64,000 nt of DNA from Kiritimatiellia bacterium (GTDB taxonomy: Bacteria; Verrucomicrobiota; Kiritimatiellia; RFP12; UBA1067): assembly GCA_045656225.1 (NCBI GenBank), contig JAZOQU010000001.1:19466-83465 (forward strand), read 5' to 3'. This document shows, one piece after another, positions 19,310 through 38,972 of this stretch. The notes under the pieces are model-generated. The model was not told where the DNA came from and made no database searches. It saw nothing but the letters and a program-made list of their open reading frames with translations. The position numbers and the translations under genes are program-made. The stretch's first letter is position 1. The number at the start of each line of letters is the position of its first letter.

Positions 19310-20614
19310 ATGAATCGTTTAGTTCTTTTTGTATACGGTGTGGCAGCAGCCATCTTGATGTGTGCAGGTACGGCTCTGGGAAATGTAAAGGAGCTGTGCG
19401 TCGGAGTATGGAAGGGCGGAGCGTCTGGCCTTTCGAAAGAGACATATCTTGTTGTGCGGACCGACGGTACTGGCGCCGCGTTTGGCGTTTCGGGGCGTGG
19501 CGAACAGAAAAAGGCTTATGAGTTTGAATTCGAACCCGACGGTGATGTGCTGAAATTGAAAAATCGCTGGGCGATGCGAAAGGGAAAGCGTCGCGATTAC
19601 AACGACCGTAATGAAGGCCGCCTTTGGGTTGAGGCGAAGAGCGGAAAGTTGATGATGTCGGACGGGACTCGTATGAAGTCTTTCGAGCGGGCCAGAGACA
19701 TTGAGGATCCTTTTCGGCGAAATGCCGGCAAGTCTTTAAAGGATGCAGTGGTTGGAGTGTGGTGCGGAGGAAGCGAATTCAATGCGTGCAGCATGGTGCT
19801 GGCGAAAAACGGCGACGCGTTGTTTGTTTTCGCCGCAGGCGGAGCGTTTGGGAAGTGGTCTCTTACGCCTGAGGGTGGTGTAAAACTTCTGTTGGATGAT
19901 TCTGGAGATACCCAGAGTATGGTTGCGCATTATGATCCCGCGGAAGATATGATGTCTTTCGGTAAGACCCGAGAGATCTTTCGCAATGTGAAGGTTTCGC
20001 CGGAAGAAGCCATGAGACCGTTCAATGAAAAGATTGCTGAAATAGCCAGGCAAAAGGCGCGCCGACGTGAATTGTATTTAGCAGACAAGAATTGCGTTAC
20101 GACGACGAATGAGTTTACCTCCGTTGCAGAAATTGTGACGAGCCTTTTAGCGGATAGGAGCGATGGCTTTTGTGAGCGTTTGATAACGATAGAGACGGGT
20201 GTTGAAAGCCTGTCGGACAGTTTTCATGTAGATACACGTGGCTCCGGTTTTGTTCGCGCTTTTTTTCAGACTGGCTACTCGGAAAGGGGGCCTCAACCTG
20301 CGGATGCAGATGTGTTTGTGTCGGAGTGGAGATATTCACGGCCTCGTGGGATTGTAGATCCTAAAAGGACCTTTCGGCATGGCATTGACAAGATTAAGGA
20401 TAGTGCGCAGGCGTACAAGGGTGCAGGTATAGCTTGCAGGGAAGGTTGGCAGGTGCGGTCGCGGGGAATGTGGCATTCATGGACGGAAAACGCAATGATG
20501 GATTGGAATACCGCAAAGGCTGACAACGAGGCATTCATCAAACTTCTCGAGCCCAGATTCGAAGGTCGCTTCCCTTGCAAAGGGACAGTGCTCACAATCA
20601 GGACGAAGAAATAA
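19310..20614 (+). CDS. secreted hypothetical protein with internal duplication
   Basis: Signal peptide MNRLVLFVYGVAAAILMCAGTALG. Two related segments are present (VGVWKGGASG...GDVLKLK and VVGVWCGGSEF...GGVKLLL). GC content looks lower than in neighbours. Confidence 0.6.
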   Translation: MNRLVLFVYGVAAAILMCAGTALGNVKELCVGVWKGGASGLSKETYLVVRTDGTGAAFGVSGRGEQKKAYEFEFEPDGDVLKLKNRWAMRKGKRRDYNDRNEGRLWVEAKSGKLMMSDGTRMKSFERARDIEDPFRRNAGKSLKDAVVGVWCGGSEFNACSMVLAKNGDALFVFAAGGAFGKWSLTPEGGVKLLLDDSGDTQSMVAHYDPAEDMMSFGKTREIFRNVKVSPEEAMRPFNEKIAEIARQKARRRELYLADKNCVTTTNEFTSVAEIVTSLLADRSDGFCERLITIETGVESLSDSFHVDTRGSGFVRAFFQTGYSERGPQPADADVFVSEWRYSRPRGIVDPKRTFRHGIDKIKDSAQAYKGAGIACREGWQVRSRGMWHSWTENAMMDWNTAKADNEAFIKLLEPRFEGRFPCKGTVLTIRTKK

Positions 20615-29832: not shown

Positions 29833-30675
29833 ATGAGTTGCAATAATGACAGATTGTTTTTGGAAATCGACAGCTGGCAGAGCGAAACGGATTTGGTTTC
29901 AGCCGAGACATACCGAGATTATATGCGCGATGGTGATACGCGCTCGCTCGCGTCTTTAGAGAAATTGGAACGAGCATTCGAGCGAGTTCTAAACGAGATT
30001 CATTCAACTAAGGTCACTGATACTCCCGCGGTGTGGAGCCTTTATAACATGGGATATCTCGTAAAGACGCGCGAATCGTTCTTTTCGATTGATCTTATTC
30101 ACCGCCGCGCGATGGAACTTGTTGATAAGCTTGATTTTGCGCTCATAACCCACAACCACGGCGATCATTGCGATCTTAATGTTTATCAGGCTCTTAATTC
30201 AGCGGGTAAGACCGTGATTTCGAGTTTTCTCGACAATTACGGTGCGACGCGTGATAAGACTAAGAATTCCGCAGGCGGCGGATTTGTTATGGGCGAGAAG
30301 ATTTTCAGGATAAAAGATGTAGAGATTTCAACGTCTTTAGTCGACCACAATAAGTATCTGCTCGACTTTACGACCGCATTTGAAATCCGCGCCGGAAAGT
30401 GGAAACTTTATCATACGGGCGACTGTGGAGTCGCCGATAAGCTTAAAACGCGCTGGGGTAGGCCCGATGTCTGGATGTTTTTCCCTGGGTGCGGAATTAA
30501 GGTTGATAAGGCGGTTAAAATGATACAGCCTAAAAAGTTGGTCTTTGGTCACTTGTGGGAGCTGAATCACAATACCGGCAGATTAAACGCGCCGCTTATT
30601 AAGCGTGCTGTTAAAAAATCCCAAAGCGTCGACGTAATGCCTCATGTCGCATTTTGGGGTGAGCGGATTTTTTGA
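29833..30675 (+). CDS. MBL-fold metallo-hydrolase
   Basis: HxHxDH motif (ITHNHGDHCD) with later His/Asp ligands (YHTGDCG, FGHLWE). I prefer the ATG at 29833 over the listed non-ATG start at 29821. Confidence 0.7.
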   Translation: MSCNNDRLFLEIDSWQSETDLVSAETYRDYMRDGDTRSLASLEKLERAFERVLNEIHSTKVTDTPAVWSLYNMGYLVKTRESFFSIDLIHRRAMELVDKLDFALITHNHGDHCDLNVYQALNSAGKTVISSFLDNYGATRDKTKNSAGGGFVMGEKIFRIKDVEISTSLVDHNKYLLDFTTAFEIRAGKWKLYHTGDCGVADKLKTRWGRPDVWMFFPGCGIKVDKAVKMIQPKKLVFGHLWELNHNTGRLNAPLIKRAVKKSQSVDVMPHVAFWGERIF

Positions 30676-30964: not shown

Positions 30965-32242
30965 ATGAAAATAGATACTTTGTGTGTACAGGGCGGTTGG
31001 TCGCCCAAGTGCGGCGAGCCGCGCCAGGTTCCGATTTATTCCTCCACCACATTCAAGTACGATACGACGCAGCACATGGCCGATCTTTTCGACCTTAAGG
31101 CGTCGGGCTATTTTTATACGCGTTTGGCGAATCCCACCAACGATGAGGTGGCTAAAAAAATCGCCGCGCTTGAGGGCGGTGTCGCCGCGATTCTCACGAG
31201 TTCAGGCCAGGCGGCGTCGACGTTCGCGATTTTAAATCTCTGCGGCGCGGGAGACCATGTCGTATGTTCCGCCCAGATCTACGGCGGAACTTTCAACCTC
31301 TTTGCCGTTTCTCTCAAGAAGCTCGGTATCGAATTCACGTTCGTCGATCCCGATTCCGACGCGAAGACGATTCAGGCGGCGTTCCGTCCTAATACGAAAT
31401 GCGTTTTCGGCGAGACCGTCGCAAATCCTTCCGGCTGCGTTCTCGACATCGCGAAGTTCGCCAAGATCGCCCACAAAAACGGAGTTCCGCTCATTATCGA
31501 CAATACGTTCCCGACGCCGATTCTCTGCCGTCCGTTCGAGTTCGGGTGCGATATCGTTACCCACGCCACGACAAAATACATGGACGGCCATTCATCGCAG
31601 GTCGGCGGATGTATCGTCGACTCTGGTAATTTCGACTGGGAGGCCCACGCCGATAAATTCCCGGGTCTCGTCGAGCCCGATGAATCGTACCACGGTTTGA
31701 GCTACACCAAGGCTTTCGGAAAGTTGGCGTACATCACGAAGTGCACCGCCCATCTTATGCGCGACTTCGGCGCGATCCCTTCGCCTTTCAACGCGTTTCT
31801 CGTGAACCTCGGTCTTGAGTCGCTTCATCTGCGCATCCGCCGCCATGCGGAGTCGGCGCTTAAGATCGCGAAGTGGCTTAAGAAGCAGCCGAAGGTAGCG
31901 TGGGTAAACTTCGCGGGGCTGCCCGATTCGAAGTATCATAAGCTCGTGAAAAAGCAGTTCAGCGGCAATTCGCCATGCGGTGTCATGACATTCGGCATCC
32001 GCGGCGGAAGAAAGGCGTCCATCAGATTCATGGATTCTTTGAAGCTCATCGGCATCGTAACACACGTCGCCGACGCATGGAGCTGCGTTCTTCACCCGGC
32101 TTCGCATACTCATCGCCAGCTGACGGACAAGCAGCTTAAGGAAGCGGGGATTCCGCCGGATCTGATTCGTCTTTCGGTCGGGCTCGAAGACCCCGGCGAT
32201 CTTATCGCCGATCTTGAACAGGCCATAGAGAAGGTCAGGTAA
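30965..32242 (+). CDS. metY: O-acetylhomoserine sulfhydrylase / aminocarboxypropyltransferase (PLP-dependent)
   Basis: Cys/Met-metabolism PLP family motifs are present (YTRLANPT, ATTKYMDGHS with the PLP Lys, LSVGLEDPGDLIADL). Length is 425 aa. Confidence 0.85.
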   Translation: MKIDTLCVQGGWSPKCGEPRQVPIYSSTTFKYDTTQHMADLFDLKASGYFYTRLANPTNDEVAKKIAALEGGVAAILTSSGQAASTFAILNLCGAGDHVVCSAQIYGGTFNLFAVSLKKLGIEFTFVDPDSDAKTIQAAFRPNTKCVFGETVANPSGCVLDIAKFAKIAHKNGVPLIIDNTFPTPILCRPFEFGCDIVTHATTKYMDGHSSQVGGCIVDSGNFDWEAHADKFPGLVEPDESYHGLSYTKAFGKLAYITKCTAHLMRDFGAIPSPFNAFLVNLGLESLHLRIRRHAESALKIAKWLKKQPKVAWVNFAGLPDSKYHKLVKKQFSGNSPCGVMTFGIRGGRKASIRFMDSLKLIGIVTHVADAWSCVLHPASHTHRQLTDKQLKEAGIPPDLIRLSVGLEDPGDLIADLEQAIEKVR

Positions 32243-32274: not shown

Positions 32275-35200
32275 ATGGAAGAAATTAAATTAAAGCGCAA
32301 ATCGCCGCGTCTGGTCGATTGGACAGTTTCGCTCGCCGTTGCATCCGTTGCATTTCTGGTGTATGCGTTATTGAGTGTTGATTGCGTGCCTGCGGGTATG
32401 GACAGCAAGGTTGTCGTTTCATGGCTTGGTCTTGATGTTCAGGCGCATAATCCGTTCGTCCTCTGCGGATTCTTCGCCAGGATGTTTTCCGTTTCCGGCT
32501 TTTTTAATGTATTTGTCGGTGTGATGGCGACGCTTTGCGTTTTTCATCTGGTTAATACATATCTTCGTCAGACGTTCGGTGCCTTTTTCTCCGATTCCCA
32601 GAAACTGCTTACTTCAAGAATCGGCGCTGTCGCCGCTTCACTTGTTTTTGTTTTCACTTCCTCCGTGCTTGATTCGGCAACACATTCCGGCCCTGCGCTT
32701 TTCGATACGTTCTGGGCGATGCTTGCAATAGCCGTTTTCATTTTGTACTCAAGAGTATCGAGGTGGGTTGCGTGGGTCGTACCTTTTGCATCGGGAGCGT
32801 TGATAGCTTTCGGCATTGTCGATACGATAGCGTTCTTCTTCCTCATTCCTTTTTGCGGAACCCTCGCATGGATGATTGCGTCGAGAAACGGAAGAATGGG
32901 CTATGTGGCTTCCGGATTTTTCATTCTCGGATTCCTTCTTTCACTTCCTTTTGTTTTTGCGGCCGTTGGGGATTTTAATGCTTTCGTGGAAGCTCAGAAA
33001 CTATTCTTCAAAGAGGAATATTTCAACAGAGGGTGGTTTTATGCGCTGCTTTTTGCCGTTGTTCCGTTCATGATTTCCCTTTTCTCGAGCAGATCTGTTT
33101 TCTCCTCCGAAAAAGCCAGAGAAATTGTTGTTATTGTGTTTCATTTCATAATGTCCGCGATTGCCGTCATAGCGATCGCCGAAGAATCGATGCTCGGCAC
33201 TTCAGGATATCAGCCGGCGTGTATCGCGGCGATGATTGCGGTTATGACGGGGTATCTCATCTCGTATTGGTGGTGTCTTATCGTTGATTCCTTTCCGGTT
33301 CGCTCCGGCAAGCATGATTTATCCGCGCCATCCCGCTCGATGCGCCCGGTCGGATTGATCGGCGGAATCGGACTTTCGCTTGTATTGGTTCTGCTCCTTG
33401 CGATCAACTTGTTCATTAACACCGATCGCGAGAACGTGAGAATTCTGGACGAGATTTCCGGTCGCGTAGTCTCGTCTATGGGCGAGAAGACCTGGATCGT
33501 GACGGACGGCGTCATTGACGACGGTGTATTGATCGCCGCGCACCGCCAGGGGAAGAAGCTTCATCTCGTTTCATTGATTCGCGAAAACGATAAAGATTAT
33601 CTCAAAGCTCTTGCGCAGACCGTTTTGGCGGAGAAACTGGGCGGAGAGACGCTTTCGAAGGAATTGGCCGAACTTCTCGTTAAGGATGACGGCGTTCAGA
33701 GGCAGAGACTTCTTCCCTTTATCGAGCACTGGTTCAGAAACGATCCCGAAGCCGCATCGAAAGTCGTCGTTTGGGGCGCTCCTCATCTTTGGATGAACGT
33801 CGAAAAGGAGCCCTTGCCCGAGCTTTATTTCTTTACCTGCGATAGCGGAGGTAAGGAGCCCGGCGACTGGGTCGCCCATTGGTCTTCCATCAAGGATTTC
33901 CTGTCCGTTCCGGACGATTGGGGCAGTTACAGAATCGGGAACTTTAAAGATAAATCGAAAAAGGAAGTCGTCTCTGCCCGCGAGCGCAATTGCCGTAATA
34001 TCAGGCGTCATATCGGTCTGCTGGCCACAAATCAGGGCAATTACCACCATTTCAACGGATTGAAACTCCATGAAAGCGGCAAAAAGGCCGAAGCTGAGAT
34101 CGAGTTTAAAAAAGCATTCTCTCTGTATGAGCTGGTCTTGAGCGAAATCGACCCCGACAATCTCGCGGCTTTGATCAACGAGGAGCTTCTTGCGTCCAAA
34201 AACGGTCTGAAGAGTGCCGTTGATAAACATAAGGTGATTAAAAAAGCTCTCGAGGTCGTGTATAAAGACGTCAACCGCCGTTATGATCCCGTGCAGCTTT
34301 CACTTCTCTATGGAACGATCTGTGACCCGAGTTTCATGTTCAGCTACGGTCAGGCGCTCATTTCGCGTCGCGGCCAGTATGCTCACGGTGTCTTTCAGAT
34401 CCGCAGGGCGATTGATCTGATTCCTGCCGAGCAGAGAAGGATGGCGGAGTTGAATATTCTTGCGCATTATTTTTCAGAAGGTTCCGGCGCCCATAAGATG
34501 AAGGCGCGTAACATCTATCTTGATGAACTGAAGAGCGATCCGGGCAATAAACTGGCTCTCATCAGGCTGGCCAATCTTGAAGCGCTCGACGGGAACGTCG
34601 AAAAAGCCAAAGAATATCTTCAGCTTGCGCTGAAAGGTGTTGAAAACAATGTCAACTATGCCAAGCAGCAGGCCCAGTTGTGTCTTCTGAACGATGATCT
34701 GAGAGGTGCTGAAAGCGTGCTCAGGCGCGCGATCGACGCCTATCCCAAGGATATTCACGCCTGGGCGCTTTTGGTGCATGTTCTGATTCGCGATATTGAT
34801 AATATGGGCGATGTTAAGCCGGGCACGAAGCGCGCTCAGCGCAGGAATGAGCTTCTTAATGAGATTGAAACCGACCTTCTTCCGGTTATGGAAACTTTGA
34901 CCAGGGATGGCGCTGGAGTCGATAACGACATAGTCTACAGATCCGCCAAGGCGCTGTTCCTTATCCGAAAGGGAGGCGTTGATAACATTCGTAGCGCACG
35001 CGATTCCTTTGACGAGGTTTCGAAGACGCGTCGTGTCTCGAGCAGTACGGGCGATATGATTCTAAGTCTCGATATGCAGCTCAACGACAAAGTACACGCC
35101 GAGGATAAGGCCAAGAGTATTTTGGCGACTAATCCTTCCGATTCCATGGCCAATTACATCATGGGCTCCATTTCTCTGCATCGCGGCGAGAACGGAATTG

Positions 35201-35622
35201 CCGAGTCGTATCTCAGAAAAGCCGTAGAGGGGAATCGCGTAGTTCCTTTGGCGTTCAACGATCTTGCAGAGGTTCTTCGTCGTCGCAAAGCGTATGACGA
35301 AGCGGAGAAGGTGGCGCGCCAGGCTGTTGTCCACACTCCGAATCTTTACGTCGCATGGGAAACGCTCGGTTCGATTTTGATGGACGCGGGCAAATCGTTT
35401 GAAGAAGCCGAGAAGTATATTCAAAAGGCCTGTGATCTTTCAAAGGACGAACAGGGCGGAGCTGCCGACGTCAGAATGCTTATTTCTCTCGCCCGCGTCC
35501 AGATAAAGCGCGGTCAGATGCTTCGCGCCAAGGGGACGATGCGAGTGGTTCAGGGGAGAATGAAAGAGCTTACCGAGTACGAAAGAAAAGAGTTTGAGGA
35601 ATTGATGAGAAGTGTTAAGTAG
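32275..35622 (+). CDS. large membrane protein: N-terminal polytopic GT-C/DUF2723-like domain plus C-terminal TPR repeats
   Basis: An AAGGAG Shine-Dalgarno sequence is present. The first ~390 aa are polytopic with an early acidic loop (VPAGMDSKVVVSWLGLDVQAHNPF). The C-terminal ~600 aa hold multiple TPR-like units (e.g. AEKVARQAVVHTPNLYVAWETLGSILMDAGKSFEEAEKYIQKA). Confidence 0.65.
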   Translation: MEEIKLKRKSPRLVDWTVSLAVASVAFLVYALLSVDCVPAGMDSKVVVSWLGLDVQAHNPFVLCGFFARMFSVSGFFNVFVGVMATLCVFHLVNTYLRQTFGAFFSDSQKLLTSRIGAVAASLVFVFTSSVLDSATHSGPALFDTFWAMLAIAVFILYSRVSRWVAWVVPFASGALIAFGIVDTIAFFFLIPFCGTLAWMIASRNGRMGYVASGFFILGFLLSLPFVFAAVGDFNAFVEAQKLFFKEEYFNRGWFYALLFAVVPFMISLFSSRSVFSSEKAREIVVIVFHFIMSAIAVIAIAEESMLGTSGYQPACIAAMIAVMTGYLISYWWCLIVDSFPVRSGKHDLSAPSRSMRPVGLIGGIGLSLVLVLLLAINLFINTDRENVRILDEISGRVVSSMGEKTWIVTDGVIDDGVLIAAHRQGKKLHLVSLIRENDKDYLKALAQTVLAEKLGGETLSKELAELLVKDDGVQRQRLLPFIEHWFRNDPEAASKVVVWGAPHLWMNVEKEPLPELYFFTCDSGGKEPGDWVAHWSSIKDFLSVPDDWGSYRIGNFKDKSKKEVVSARERNCRNIRRHIGLLATNQGNYHHFNGLKLHESGKKAEAEIEFKKAFSLYELVLSEIDPDNLAALINEELLASKNGLKSAVDKHKVIKKALEVVYKDVNRRYDPVQLSLLYGTICDPSFMFSYGQALISRRGQYAHGVFQIRRAIDLIPAEQRRMAELNILAHYFSEGSGAHKMKARNIYLDELKSDPGNKLALIRLANLEALDGNVEKAKEYLQLALKGVENNVNYAKQQAQLCLLNDDLRGAESVLRRAIDAYPKDIHAWALLVHVLIRDIDNMGDVKPGTKRAQRRNELLNEIETDLLPVMETLTRDGAGVDNDIVYRSAKALFLIRKGGVDNIRSARDSFDEVSKTRRVSSSTGDMILSLDMQLNDKVHAEDKAKSILATNPSDSMANYIMGSISLHRGENGIAESYLRKAVEGNRVVPLAFNDLAEVLRRRKAYDEAEKVARQAVVHTPNLYVAWETLGSILMDAGKSFEEAEKYIQKACDLSKDEQGGAADVRMLISLARVQIKRGQMLRAKGTMRVVQGRMKELTEYERKEFEELMRSVK

Positions 35623-36721
35623 TCTTCTAATCGCAACCGCTTTTCAGATCGGGCCTTTTTATGAACAGAGGCCCGATTATTTCGCGTTGAGGCCGGTTGT
35701 TTCGCATGAGGCTGAAACGACAGACGTTCTGTGGCCTGTATTTACCTCGCACCGCGACTGGTGGAGATTCTGCTACATCGTCAATTATCAGAATTACGGT
35801 GTCGATGACGGGTATCAGTTTTCTGTTTTACCGATTTGGTTTAACGGCGAAGATAAAGAGAAGGGTGCGTACGTCGGGCTTTTCCCGATAACGGGTTATC
35901 ATCCCCATATTCTTATGCTCCATGACTGGGAGTTCGCGATGTGGCCGGTGTGGATGCGTTATAAAATGCCGCGCGGCCGCGATTGGCTTGAGACGAATTC
36001 CGTTCTCTTTCCGTTCATCAGCTGGCGCAGTGACGGAGCGTGGAGCGTTTGGCCGTTCTACGGCGTCAATTATCAGCGCGAGAGCGACCACCGCTACGCG
36101 TTTTGGCCGTTGGTGACATGGGCGTCATACCGTGCCGACCGCGATACCGCCGGAGCCGGATACTCATGGATGGTGTGGCCGCTGTACGGTAAGGTCAGGC
36201 GGGAGCGCGAAAGGCAGACGATGTATCTCCCTCCGTTCTTCTCATGGACGGAAATCATTACGGACGGTAAAGGCAGGCAAGGTGAGATGCGCAGCTTCCC
36301 GTTTGTCAGACTTCGCTGTCCTTGGCCATTCCTTGAATTAGAGGATATGCCTCGGCGTATTCGCATTTCCTTTTGGCCGTTTTACGAGTCTGTTGAAAAT
36401 TACAGTTACAAGGACGGTTCTCGCGTGAGCGGAGTAAAGAGATTCGGCTGGAAGCTTGTTGAAATATACGATGATGAGACGCGCGTTTTTCCGTTCTGGA
36501 CCTCGTCGGAAGATTTCACCCGCGTTTGGCCGTTTTGGGAGTGTGATGAAGACGGCGAGATAACGCATTCCAAAGTCCTTTCTCTTATGCCTATACGATG
36601 GGATCCTGCCGTAGAACGCAACTGGTCAAAATTCTGGACTTTATATGAGAATGAATCGTGTCCTGTTTATACGGATCATTCTCTTTTTTGGGGACTTATC
36701 CGCTGGAGGACGAACAAATGA
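35612..36721 (+). CDS. Trp/Pro-rich repeat protein (about 14 aromatic-Pro-aromatic motifs), function unknown
   Basis: The GTG start overlaps the upstream gene by 11 nt. Motifs of the type WPVF, WPFYG, WPLYG, FPFW and WPFWE recur every ~20-25 aa. Confidence 0.6.
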   Translation: MLSSLLIATAFQIGPFYEQRPDYFALRPVVSHEAETTDVLWPVFTSHRDWWRFCYIVNYQNYGVDDGYQFSVLPIWFNGEDKEKGAYVGLFPITGYHPHILMLHDWEFAMWPVWMRYKMPRGRDWLETNSVLFPFISWRSDGAWSVWPFYGVNYQRESDHRYAFWPLVTWASYRADRDTAGAGYSWMVWPLYGKVRRERERQTMYLPPFFSWTEIITDGKGRQGEMRSFPFVRLRCPWPFLELEDMPRRIRISFWPFYESVENYSYKDGSRVSGVKRFGWKLVEIYDDETRVFPFWTSSEDFTRVWPFWECDEDGEITHSKVLSLMPIRWDPAVERNWSKFWTLYENESCPVYTDHSLFWGLIRWRTNK

Positions 36722-37632
36722 CGCTCGAGCGGCTAAGAGTCTGGCTTAAAGCTTTAAGAGTCAACCAGTGGACTAAAAACGGCATCGTTTTTCTCGCCTG
36801 GTTCTTCGCGTTCGCCGACGACACTCAGGCAGCGATGGCGCGCGGGTACAGGCCGTTCCTTCTCGTTTCGGCGATGGCTGTTTCGTTCTCGCTGATATCG
36901 AGCGCGTTTTATCTTTTAAACGACATATCGGATTATGACGCCGACAGACTCCATCCCGTCAAGCGTCTCCGTCCGATTGCGGACGATCTGATTTCCAAGA
37001 TTGACGCGGTAAGAGCCGCGCTCGCGTTGTACGCGTGTTCGCTCGCGTTTCCTGCGTATCTCGTTTTTCGGCATCCCGACCGCACATGGGGCTTTGCGGT
37101 GATTTTGATTTATACGGTGATGCAAAGCCTTTATTCCGGTTTTCTGAAGCGTATTCCGTATGTCGACGTCGCCGTTATCGCCGCCGGGTTCGTGCTTCGC
37201 GCCGTCGCGGGAGCGGCGGCTATGGACGTAAGAATTTCACCGTGGCTGCTCGGGTGCGCGTTTTCGATTTCGATGTTTCTCGCGCTCTGCAAGCGCCGTC
37301 ATGAAAAGGCGATCGCTTGCGAATCGCGCGCAGCGCTTGCGAACTATCATCCGATTGTTCTCGACACTTTGATTTTCACTTCCGCATTTGCGACGCTCGG
37401 GGTTTATCTCTGGTATACGCTCGCCGCCGACACGGTCGCAAGATTCGGAACCCGCGCGCTTTCGCTAACGGCTCTCTTCGTCGCTTTAGGGATTATCCGA
37501 TATCTCTATCTCCTTTTCCGCAAAGAGGATGTCGGGCGGCCAGAGCGCATTCTTCTGACCGATAAGATCACATGGCTTGTTCTGTTAGGATACGGCGTCA
37601 GCGCAGTTCTCGCAGTCTGGAGCGGAAGATGA
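36718..37632 (+). CDS. UbiA-family polyprenyl-phosphate phosphoribosyltransferase (DPPR-synthase-like)
   Basis: An ATGA overlap joins it to the upstream stop. Family-typical motifs are present (LRVNQWTKN; YLLNDISDYDADRLHPVKRLRPIA) with about 8 TM segments. I reject the listed 36658 start. Confidence 0.8.
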   Translation: MTLERLRVWLKALRVNQWTKNGIVFLAWFFAFADDTQAAMARGYRPFLLVSAMAVSFSLISSAFYLLNDISDYDADRLHPVKRLRPIADDLISKIDAVRAALALYACSLAFPAYLVFRHPDRTWGFAVILIYTVMQSLYSGFLKRIPYVDVAVIAAGFVLRAVAGAAAMDVRISPWLLGCAFSISMFLALCKRRHEKAIACESRAALANYHPIVLDTLIFTSAFATLGVYLWYTLAADTVARFGTRALSLTALFVALGIIRYLYLLFRKEDVGRPERILLTDKITWLVLLGYGVSAVLAVWSGR

Positions 37633-38891
37633 ATTTTCTCGAACAGCTCGCCGCCCGCCGTCGCTTCGGAATGAGGCCCGGACTTTCAACCATCCGTGCC
37701 GTCTGCCGTTCGCTCGGCGATCCGCAGGAGCGGATCAGGGCGGTTCACATAGCGGGAACGAACGGGAAGGGAGCCGTTGCGGCGCTTTTGGACGCTTCGC
37801 TCCGGTCCGCCGGACTGAAGGTAGGCCGCTACACCTCGCCTCATCTGGTAAGACTCAACGAGCGCTTTTTTCTGAACGGGTCGCCCGTTGATGACGACAA
37901 GCTCGAGGAAATTTCACTGCGCGTAGAGAAGGCCGTTTCGTCTACGGGCGACGCCGGAGAAGGGACCACATTTTTCGAGGCGTTGACTGCCGTCGCGTTT
38001 TCGCTTTATGCCGACAGCAGCGTTGACGCGGCGGTTCTTGAAACGGGTCTCGGCGGGCGTCTCGACGCGACGAATATCTGTAACCCCGCCCTCACGGTTA
38101 TAACGCGTATCGGACTTGATCATTGCGACTGGCTCGGAGATACCGTAGAAAAAATCGCTGTTGAAAAGGCTGGAATAATCAAGAGCGGCGTGCCTGTCGT
38201 GCTCGGCGAAAATCTCCCCGAAGTGCGCAAGATTATCGAAAAACGCGCCTGTGAACTTGACGCTCCCTTTTATTATGCTCCGGATATGGCGCTTGAACTG
38301 GAAATTCCCGCCGGCTATTCGCTTCAAGGCTCCTTCAATCGCGAAAACGCATTGACGGCCATCGCCGCACTGAAGGTAATCCGCGAGAGGAAACTCTTTA
38401 ATCTACCTCAAGCCGAACGGTTAAATGACGGTTTCTCGAATGTCGTCTGGCCCGGACGTTTCCAGAAGGCCGGCAATGTGCTTGTCGACGGCGCCCACAA
38501 TCCCCCCGCCGCGCGTGCGTTGGTCAACGCTCTTAAGGAACTGCCCGAGAAAAAGTATATTCTCGTCGCAGGCTTTTGCGCCGACAAGGATGTCGGCGAG
38601 ACGCTTTCTATTCTTGCACCTTTCGTTTCAAAGGCGTATGCTGTTAAAACGAACAATCCGCGCTCGCTTGAACCGTCCGAGCTTGCGCTCAAGATGCGCT
38701 CGCAAGGCATCGACGCCGATACGTCATCGACGTTAAGTGAGGCTCTCCGGCTGGCGAAAGCCGATGTTCAGTCGACAGGCGGAGCAGCGGTACTTGTGTG
38801 CGGTTCTCTCTTTCTCGCCGGCGAGGCGCTTGTTGCATTGAACGCCTATCCGTGGTCATTTTCACGTTTCGATCTCTCTGAGCGTTTGTAA
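37629..38891 (+). CDS. folC: bifunctional folylpolyglutamate synthase / dihydrofolate synthase
   Basis: An ATGA overlap joins it to the upstream stop. P-loop HIAGTNGKGAV and a Mur-ligase-type core (LETGLGGRLDATN) are present. I reject the listed 37572 start. Confidence 0.85.
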   Translation: MNFLEQLAARRRFGMRPGLSTIRAVCRSLGDPQERIRAVHIAGTNGKGAVAALLDASLRSAGLKVGRYTSPHLVRLNERFFLNGSPVDDDKLEEISLRVEKAVSSTGDAGEGTTFFEALTAVAFSLYADSSVDAAVLETGLGGRLDATNICNPALTVITRIGLDHCDWLGDTVEKIAVEKAGIIKSGVPVVLGENLPEVRKIIEKRACELDAPFYYAPDMALELEIPAGYSLQGSFNRENALTAIAALKVIRERKLFNLPQAERLNDGFSNVVWPGRFQKAGNVLVDGAHNPPAARALVNALKELPEKKYILVAGFCADKDVGETLSILAPFVSKAYAVKTNNPRSLEPSELALKMRSQGIDADTSSTLSEALRLAKADVQSTGGAAVLVCGSLFLAGEALVALNAYPWSFSRFDLSERL

Positions 38892-38943: not shown

Positions 38944-38972
38944 TTGGAAAGTACAGTTCTTTGTGGTATAAT
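38944..38972 (+). promoter_or_regulatory. promoter TTGGAA-17-(TGg)TATAAT
   Basis: The -35 element is at 38944-38949 and the extended -10 at 38964-38972. The glgB ATG lies 30 nt downstream, preceded by AAGGAA. Confidence 0.55.

Follow-up and report, generated by a model that had tools for sequence, protein, structure and literature searches.

The 64,000-nucleotide window analyzed here, positions 19,466 to 83,465 of contig JAZOQU010000001.1 from a Kiritimatiellia bacterium (GenBank assembly GCA_045656225.1), contains a run of four co-directional open reading frames (ORFs), termed A to D, whose coordinates in the ORF list match those of an earlier note on this DNA exactly. The source assembly comprises 2.6 Mb in 62 contigs and is 92.7% complete; named homologs suggest an uncultured inhabitant of gut or rumen. 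Two enzyme families are established at this locus by sequence comparison. Protein C falls with the polyprenyl-phosphate 5-phosphoribosyltransferases (PPPRS), and protein A combines a distant relative of the human glycosyltransferase TMEM260 with tetratricopeptide repeats (TPR). Protein C may supply a lipid-linked sugar donor to an enzyme of the TMEM260 type, a glycosyltransferase of the C fold (GT-C). The genes, together with one residue of protein A, are arranged as follows.

30965..32242, + strand: metY-like gene for a pyridoxal phosphate-dependent enzyme of the O-acetylhomoserine sulfhydrylase family (Pfam PF01053, E value of 3e-124)
32275..35622, + strand: gene A, 1,115 amino acids (aa), divergent TMEM260/DUF2723-like GT-C module followed by TPR
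32401..32403, + strand: codon of Asp43 of protein A in the motif P-A-G-M-D-S, located from alignments
35612..36721, + strand: gene B, 369 aa, GTG start, tryptophan-rich product
36718..37632, + strand: gene C, 304 aa from the ATG, UbiA-fold polyprenyl-phosphate 5-phosphoribosyltransferase of the PPPRS or decaprenyl-phosphate phosphoribosyltransferase (DPPR synthase) type
37629..38891, + strand: gene D, 420 aa from the ATG, FolC (folylpolyglutamate/dihydrofolate synthase; TIGR01499)

The four genes are chained by overlaps of 11, 4, and 4 nt at the A/B, B/C, and C/D junctions, as the earlier note had described and as a reading of the DNA and of related genomes bears out. Gene A ends with a TAG at positions 35620 to 35622, which places the GTG of gene B at 35612 within an 11-nt overlap. 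This GTG is the sole possible upstream start of gene B, since a TGA at positions 35606 to 35608 closes the frame, and it is preceded by a GAGGA 12 nt upstream. ATGA junctions are found at 36718 to 36721 (B/C) and 37629 to 37632 (C/D), with GGAGGA or GGAG ahead of each. These stretches are read as Shine-Dalgarno sequences, one at every overlap. The identical set of 11-, 4-, and 4-nt overlaps recurs in the relatives L004 to L007, whose B proteins share only 62 to 66% identity, which shows the overlaps to be conserved rather than accidental. As an overlapping gene set, A-B-C-D is a single predicted operon, and the metY-like gene, which ends 32 nt before the start of gene A, probably belongs to it as well. 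Promoter-like and terminator-like sites are no commoner between positions 30600 and 39200 than in shuffled sequence; the best promoter-like site on the + strand, at 38944 to 38972, lies after folC and ahead of the next gene.

Protein C belongs, as judged from its sequence, to the polyprenyl-phosphate phosphoribosyltransferase type (the Rv3806c/PPPRS clade), with the corresponding activity predicted. It matches the Pfam family UbiA (PF01040), and its top NCBIfam matches are three DPPR-synthase models, with E values of 7e-55, 3e-39, and 2e-32, together with the HAD-UbiA model PRK08238; for heme O synthase and 4-hydroxybenzoate prenyltransferase, the model E values are no better than 4e-6 and 2e-3, respectively. 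When all PDB sequences are searched with phmmer, the only protein matched is Rv3806c from Mycobacterium tuberculosis (PDB 8J8J), with an E value of 7.5e-23, both of the matched sequences being Rv3806c entries. The alignment runs from end to end, residues 10 to 295 of protein C corresponding to residues 18 to 294 of Rv3806c.

With the residue roles taken from the structural study of Rv3806c (PMC10994848), protein C keeps 12 of the 13 functional, substrate-binding residues. R14, K20, Y65, N68, D72, K82, R85, Q136, Y139, K144, F158, and K192 of protein C correspond to R22, K28, Y70, N73, D77, K87, R90, Q135, Y138, K143, Y157, and K191 of Rv3806c; K208 of Rv3806c is the only one of the 13 with no equivalent kept. 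The contacts specific for phosphoribose in Rv3806c, which are K28, Y70, Q135, and Y157, are missing from aromatic prenyltransferases (PMC10994848), and their equivalents are present in protein C as K20, Y65, Q136, and F158. The exchange of tyrosine for phenylalanine at the last of these positions is found in some mycobacteria, too (PMC10994848). The signature NDxxDxxxD...HPxKRxRPIA, which the earlier note had named as a hallmark of DPPR synthases, is represented by N68, D69, D72, D76, H79, K82, R85, and P86, all invariant in 13 homologs sampled across the class. Among the same homologs R14, K20, Y65, Y139, and K192 are likewise invariant, K144 and F158 are nearly so, and Q136 is the majority residue. 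Every test applied places protein C with the PPPRS-type enzymes, short of NCBIfam equivalog status. In a FastTree phylogeny of 144 UbiA sequences, protein C groups with Rv3806c and with a Nitrospirales homolog flanked by DprE1-like and DprE2-like genes. The two other UbiA paralogs of the genome are placed far from protein C on very long separate branches. A role as a quinone or heme prenyltransferase is rejected on the NCBIfam E values, the PDB match, and the tree.

Several observations concern related UbiA genes elsewhere. In the Nitrospirales locus L149 (3787-6876), genes for a DprE1-like protein (FAD_binding_4 and ALO domains), a DprE2-like protein (SDR), and UbiA are consecutive and form a full set for a lipid-linked arabinofuranose donor outside the actinobacteria. 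Protein C carries no fused phosphatase domain. Some Kiritimatiellae families have the UbiA homolog in an open frame of 470 to 514 aa with no GT2 gene adjoining. That of L058 (9295-10836, minus strand) has YVDLDGTL, a HAD motif, in its N-terminal part and in this resembles ORF15 of Citrobacter youngae, in which phosphatase and PPPRS are fused. In eight further loci (L148, L152, L154, L155, L156, L163, L184, and L185), from Aminicenantes, Acidobacteriota, Zixibacteria, Planctomycetota, Armatimonadota, Chitinivibrionales, and one unclassified metagenome-assembled genome (MAG), the PPPRS-type UbiA gene is directly followed by a gene for a protein of typically 320 to 440 aa. In L184 (6979-8106) and L185, the two examples scanned with Pfam, this is a DUF362 protein.

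The earlier note had also described the 1,115-aa protein A as having a GT-C/DUF2723-like N terminus and a TPR half, and both parts hold, the first as remote homology to TMEM260 found by profile-profile comparison and the second by Pfam. Direct scans with Pfam and NCBIfam find only TPR families, at residues 743 to 1097; scans restricted to residues 1 to 420 (Pfam, NCBIfam, and PDB by sequence) were tried for a GT-C match and gave none. An exhaustive search of 1.8 billion representatives defines a protein A family of 54 clusters, most of the full-length ones having 1,040 to 1,130 aa. This family is present in 40 of the 67 Kiritimatiellae genomes and in none of the 134 genomes from other classes of the phylum. 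A profile of its N-terminal part finds canonical PF11028 (TMEM260-like) proteins with E values of 1e-13 to 1e-20, and hhalign aligns it with the canonical TMEM260-like family at a probability of 98.1% and an E value of 8e-14 over 192 columns, which coincide with the Pfam domain PF11028. The distant homolog P0010 itself carries PF11028 in precomputed data, and the A-family paralog in locus L044 matches PF11028 with an E value of 8.9e-4, under the cut-off. When the profile built from the A family only is run against the PDB, the top match is human TMEM260 (9rql), with an E value of 0.022, the sole whole-sequence value below 1. The alignment is in register, setting the glutamate of the family motif PGES on Asp52 of GGDSGE, the catalytic residue of the human enzyme (PMC10214176). 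On these grounds protein A is classed, by profile comparison, as a genuine and very divergent member of the TMEM260/DUF2723 superfamily.

The motifs of the canonical enzymes are degraded in this family, EDSGE to PG(x)[ED]S and HPPGYP to YPL. Most members have a glutamate at the column aligned with D52 (PGES), and a few distant members have no acid there. Protein A reads P-A-G-M-D43-S, with its acid one residue off the family motif, and its close relatives read PG[IF]E; D43, in the first periplasmic loop, is the candidate catalytic acid. According to an AlphaFold2 (AF2) model and hydropathy, about 11 transmembrane helices occupy residues 1 to about 385, a soluble linker comes next, and the TPR domain spans about residues 570 to 1115. 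Residues 383 to 1115 are predicted from the positive-inside pattern to be periplasmic. Conservation across the family covers all of the 11-helix module. The literature searched describes no function for bacterial DUF2723 proteins.

The surroundings of the UbiA gene were surveyed in 60 loci from genomes of the class and 80 from genomes of named species, with profiles built for this purpose and clustering of the neighbors. In 55 of the 56 loci of the main Kiritimatiellae clade, a GT2 gene encoding about 245 aa precedes UbiA and usually overlaps it. The best named relatives of this partner are the polyprenyl-phosphate sugar synthases ArnC, PpgS, and AglJ and a dolichyl-phosphate hexose transferase, a likeness that makes lipid-linked donors the theme of the UbiA neighborhood. 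A canonical TMEM260-like/TPR gene (PF11028, E values of 1e-28 to 1e-34) directly follows the GT2-UbiA pair in 11 of the 56 loci, scattered over the tree; given about three such genes per 2.6 Mb, the estimated chance of adjacency with UbiA is about 0.3%. Two further loci have candidates near UbiA, a Pfam-confirmed TMEM260-like gene in Chitinivibrionales and a weak match to the TMEM260-like profile in Brocadiia. Genes of the A family are found near UbiA in L044 and L050. In L044 (4327-10413; genome G197, of the same family), an A-family paralog, an LpxL/PatA-type acyltransferase (PF03279), GT2, and UbiA follow one another in this order. Genome G197 has at least five A-family paralogs, and the 1,146-aa protein of L044 was rejected as the ortholog of protein A, a closer copy being present elsewhere in that genome. 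The other recurrent neighbors of GT2-UbiA, namely, ParA, topoisomerase VI, TruB, histidine kinases, and a Ser/Thr kinase, were considered and set aside as unrelated.

The block metY-A-B-C-FolC is confined to one sub-clade of family f1, where it is kept in at least 11 species-level genomes, one of them lacking B, with UbiA identities down to 52%. The metY gene upstream of A is conserved in L004 to L007, L106, L108, L114, L117 to L122, and L159. In the UbiA tree, the genomes with the block are interleaved with genomes that have GT2-UbiA or GT2-UbiA-FolC. The four-gene arrangement is young rather than an ancient pathway unit. These comparisons predict an ancestral order of GT2-UbiA, optionally followed by a TMEM260-like gene, and the A-B pair appears to have replaced GT2 upstream of UbiA-FolC in this sub-clade. 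The earlier note had treated the four genes as a linked unit; its conservation is limited to the sub-clade, and what extends class-wide, far above chance, is the position of UbiA beside TMEM260-like/TPR genes. In the present genome the GT2 ortholog is unlinked, on contig C30, and a canonical TMEM260-like/TPR protein of 1,384 aa (PF11028, E value of 1e-31) is encoded on contig C24 (21256-25410; L062 7257-11411, minus strand). The latter gene lies directly downstream of genes for a T2SSF-type platform protein, like those of type II secretion or type IV pili, and for an FHA-domain T2SSE ATPase, neighbors that hint at secreted or pilin-like clients.

Blocks of the Kiritimatiellae kind (GT2-UbiA-FolC, GT2-UbiA, or metY-A-B-UbiA) also appear in L112, L115, and L118, whose public MAG records bear the titles Clostridiales bacterium, Limosilactobacillus gorillae, and Faecalibacterium prausnitzii. 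The Enterobacteriaceae-titled record L146 has only a 38%-identical UbiA homolog and neither type of block. Mis-binning of the contigs or mislabeling of the records is the probable cause.

Protein B contains 27 tryptophan residues and 12 [WF]P motifs and matches no sequence family in Pfam, NCBIfam, or the PDB. Its AF2 model, with a predicted local distance difference test (pLDDT) score of 89.9, has about 36 short strands arranged as hairpin repeats, by which the protein is predicted to be an all-beta hairpin-repeat protein. A Foldseek search gave no global PDB match (TM-score of 0.22 at most), and the resemblance to teneurin YD shells and OspA sheets is purely local. Readings as a beta-propeller or an outer-membrane barrel are not supported by the fold search, and the strands, at 3 to 8 residues, are too short to span a membrane, which leaves the barrel unsupported on this ground also. 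All 67 Kiritimatiellae genomes sampled have homologs of protein B, as do 9 genomes outside the class. Of 20 loci of the class and phylum, 17 have the gene directly upstream of mlaE-mlaF-mlaD (L021 to L039; e.g., L029 9221-13011), and an apparent B-MlaE fusion in L032 was rejected, the two parts being in different reading frames. Distant homologs have Sec or lipoprotein-type signal N termini. The position behind A is restricted to family f1, genera g1, g2, and g3, where the N terminus of protein B has shrunk to 10 hydrophobic residues.

From this gene order and these signal sequences, protein B is best read as a relocated exported accessory of the MCE/Mla system and not as a component of donor synthesis, in which it probably has no role. 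The earlier note had listed this WP-repeat protein in the coupled unit; its ancestral place is in mlaEFD operons. In comparison with the Mla/MCE system of Escherichia coli (MlaFEDB, MlaC, and MlaA), the likeness concerns B only, through the position of its homologs upstream of mlaE-mlaF-mlaD and their signal or lipoprotein N termini. Protein B differs in that it resembles none of MlaA, MlaB, and MlaC in sequence or fold and is encoded here outside the mla operon, and a part in lipid transport is suggested by gene order alone. The mlaEFD genes of the present genome are on contig C38 (15883-18529), not beside gene B, and neither MlaA nor MlaC is detectable in this genome, though MlaE, MlaF, and MlaD are present. 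Three genes downstream of mlaEFD on the same contig is a gene for a BacA/UppP undecaprenyl-diphosphatase (C38:20877-21680; L065 12878-13681), separated from it by genes for a 471-aa protein without a family and a GluQ-tRNA-synthetase-like protein. As a class-wide partner of MlaEFD in organisms without MlaA and MlaC, protein B offers a lead on how lipids move to the outer membrane.

Protein D scores 351.6 bits against TIGR01499, for which the cut-off is 162.65. Both folC and the metY-like gene are single copy in the genome. FolC is probably a hitch-hiking housekeeping gene, and the metY-like gene is probably an unrelated housekeeping gene as well. The earlier note had left the coupling to folC unexplained, and the comparison likewise yields no functional reason for it: UbiA and FolC adjoin only within family f1, and the genome has no second folC.

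The reading developed here is that protein C makes a lipid-linked ribose donor and that protein A is a TMEM260-type GT-C enzyme that uses this donor on an envelope acceptor; as a whole, it is about evenly poised between right and wrong. Protein C would transfer ribose-5-phosphate from phosphoribosyl pyrophosphate (PRPP) to a polyprenyl phosphate, probably undecaprenyl phosphate, at the cytoplasmic face of the inner membrane. The lipid-linked sugar would then be flipped and used in the periplasm by the module of about 11 helices of protein A. Choice of the acceptor, for which an envelope protein is the likeliest candidate, would fall to the long TPR domain, also periplasmic. Since no DprE1-type (ALO-domain) oxidase gene is found anywhere in the 92.7%-complete genome, with a Corynebacterium glutamicum control matched by the same search, arabinofuranose is not the expected sugar; the donor would carry ribofuranose or, without the action of a phosphatase, ribose-5-phosphate. 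The earlier note had reported no DprE1/DprE2-type genes in the window; for DprE1 the absence extends to the whole genome, and no search was aimed at DprE2-type reductases. Across the class, the TMEM260-type GT-C/TPR enzymes are the likely users of the product of C and of the GT2-made donor, and in this sub-clade the divergent paralog A, with the relocated B, would stand in place of GT2 before UbiA. The supply of a donor by C to an enzyme of the TMEM260 type is plausible from the recurrent, repeatedly re-formed adjacency of UbiA and TMEM260-like genes. Both A and the canonical TMEM260-like paralog on contig C24 are candidates for the user of this product.

A number of findings weigh against the reading developed here. 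Protein C scores under the NCBIfam equivalog cut-offs for all models (for NF008977, 186.5 bits, with an E value of 7e-55, against a cut-off of 234 bits), so that it is filed in the same clade and with the same mechanism and not as a DPPR-synthase equivalog. Protein A gives no match to PF11028 in Pfam at E values up to 0.1. The stretch aligned with 9rql scores only 12.4 bits, a weak match under the HMMER inclusion threshold. The acid of protein A is shifted by one residue and the second acid of DSGE is lost, and the protein could be a non-catalytic paralog. The AF2 model of the full-length protein has a pLDDT of 75, with 50 to 90 in the membrane part, which amounts to moderate confidence. All 50 PDB matches listed by Foldseek for this model are TPR or other helical-repeat proteins; the TPR half swamps the matches, and the search therefore says nothing on a GT-C fold. 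On the genomic side, adjacency of A and UbiA is limited to one sub-clade and two other loci, and sister genera have A-B and UbiA unlinked. Phosphatase, MATE, and GtrA genes are not recognizable among the ORFs scanned between 19310 and 44361, nor are they recurrent neighbors in the 56 loci, and an epimerase gene is not linked either; GtrA-like genes are found elsewhere in the genome on contigs C39 and C48. Finally, metY and folC are clearly unrelated to the other genes, which makes membership of this operon weak evidence of shared function.

Several of these points lend themselves to a tentative but serious alternative, a neutral juxtaposition in which C makes a donor for another system, such as the TMEM260-like enzyme of contig C24, lipopolysaccharide, or another glycan, and A-B is a separate module that makes no use of this donor. 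The block is lineage specific, sister genera carry A-B and GT2-UbiA(-FolC) on different contigs, and adjacency of A and B is wider in family f1 than that of A and UbiA. The class-wide adjacency concerns the canonical paralog and not the A family, and metY and folC demonstrate that the operon gathers unrelated genes. Chance placement accords less well with the repeated occurrence of both A-type and canonical TMEM260-superfamily genes beside UbiA in varied arrangements or with the retention of the block in at least 11 species-level genomes whose UbiA proteins have diverged to 52% identity.

It is more doubtful that A is a catalytically dead TPR membrane scaffold acting with B in outer-membrane lipid homeostasis, as a continuation of the ancestral Mla/MCE role of B and without any glycosyl transfer. 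Such a role would fit the finding that B heads the mlaEFD operon at 17 of 20 loci, the presence of MlaE, MlaF, and MlaD in a genome with no detectable MlaA or MlaC, the loss of two of the three EDSGE acids in the A family, with some members lacking the remaining one, and the failure of A to reach PF11028. Most A-family members nevertheless keep an acid aligned with the catalytic D52 of TMEM260, the 11-helix module is conserved family-wide, and nothing points to an interaction of A with Mla proteins. Were C an ordinary aromatic prenyltransferase of quinone or heme synthesis, the idea of glycosylation would be void; membership in PF01040 and scores under the curated DPPR-synthase cut-offs are all that speak for this, and it is effectively refuted by the wide gap between the E values of the heme and 4-hydroxybenzoate models and that of the best DPPR-synthase model, by the match to no other UbiA-family structure in the PDB than Rv3806c, by the conserved phosphoribose-binding residues, and by the very long separate branches of the genome's two other UbiA paralogs. 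In its most specific form, the donor-transferase pairing of C with a TMEM260-type enzyme would have the enzyme, guided by its TPR, pentosylate envelope proteins (with ribofuranose or ribose-5-phosphate) from the polyprenyl-phosphate donor, with B as its dedicated client or partner in the sub-clade, a combination that is unlikely. If true, no earlier case of a TMEM260-family enzyme pentosylating proteins would be known, and, with B as the partner, glycosylation of envelope proteins would be connected with lipid transport of the MCE type in a lineage without MlaA and MlaC.

Systems that join a PPPRS to a GT-C enzyme are already known outside the actinobacteria, and the Kiritimatiellae case is probably a variant of them. 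The earlier note had proposed an uncharacterized glycosylation pathway with a polyprenyl-phospho-pentose donor outside that phylum; the link between donor synthase and GT-C is plausible, the occurrence outside the actinobacteria is known from Citrobacter and Pseudomonas, and the unit is not conserved. In Citrobacter youngae O1/O2, the PPPRS ORF15, the MATE flippase ORF14, and the GT-C enzyme ORF12, which founded GT136, constitute a three-component system for the addition of pentofuranose (PMC11127046). The present locus resembles this system in having a UbiA-fold PPPRS beside a GT-C with an extra periplasmic substrate-binding domain and a PRPP-derived donor, and DprE1 and DprE2 would be unneeded in both if ribofuranose itself is transferred. 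Contrary to the Citrobacter system, protein C has no fused HAD phosphatase, neither a phosphatase nor a flippase gene adjoins, and only the PPPRS and the GT-C-like gene are linked. The GT-C here belongs to the TMEM260/DUF2723 type and carries TPR, suggestive of a protein acceptor; it is not a GT136 enzyme with a carbohydrate-binding module. These are class-wide core genes rather than a serotype-specific O-antigen locus. A further difference from the known PPPRS and GT-C systems is the near-obligate pairing of the Kiritimatiellae PPPRS with a GT2 lipid-sugar synthase.

The decaprenyl-phospho-arabinose pathway of mycobacteria consists of Rv3806c, Rv3807c, DprE1/DprE2, and GT-C enzymes of the Emb and Aft types (PMC10994848). 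Protein C shares with it the end-to-end alignment to Rv3806c and the 12 of 13 substrate-binding residues; the differences are the lack of a DprE1-type oxidase, a lipid that is presumably undecaprenyl phosphate, and the scores of C under the equivalog cut-offs. No genes for Emb/Aft-type GT-C enzymes or PAP2 phosphatases lie beside UbiA in the loci examined, and the rest of the genome was not searched for them. For group IV pilin of Pseudomonas aeruginosa, arabinosylation by the GT-C enzyme TfpW with homologs of Rv3806c, DprE1, and DprE2 has been proposed, as far as its citation in PMC11127046 goes. This is likewise a protein glycosylation of a Gram-negative bacterium that needs a PPPRS-type UbiA and a GT-C; it differs in having epimerase genes and a pilin-specific GT-C beside the pilin gene, neither of which is a feature of the present locus.

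Human TMEM260 is a protein O-mannosyltransferase (Pfam PF11028; PDB 9rql; PMC10214176), whose first-loop catalytic residue D52 is the counterpart of D77 of PMT1. As the best PDB match of the A profile, it shares with protein A about 11 transmembrane helices, a following TPR on the non-cytoplasmic side, and an acid at or next to D52. The similarity is very remote, with no Pfam match and degraded motifs in A, and TMEM260 uses dolichol-phosphate-mannose, whereas the donor of A is only predicted.

Loss of TMEM260 causes a congenital heart and kidney syndrome. The occurrence of TMEM260 relatives beside lipid-linked donor enzymes across Kiritimatiellae offers a concrete, testable pairing of donor and transferase. 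If the pairing is true, the recently defined PRPP-derived route to a lipid-linked pentose, so far tied to O-antigen side chains, pilin, and mycobacterial arabinan, would also serve a class-wide core envelope function. The metagenome assemblies in which members of the class appeared here came from rumen, gut, sediment, and other environments.

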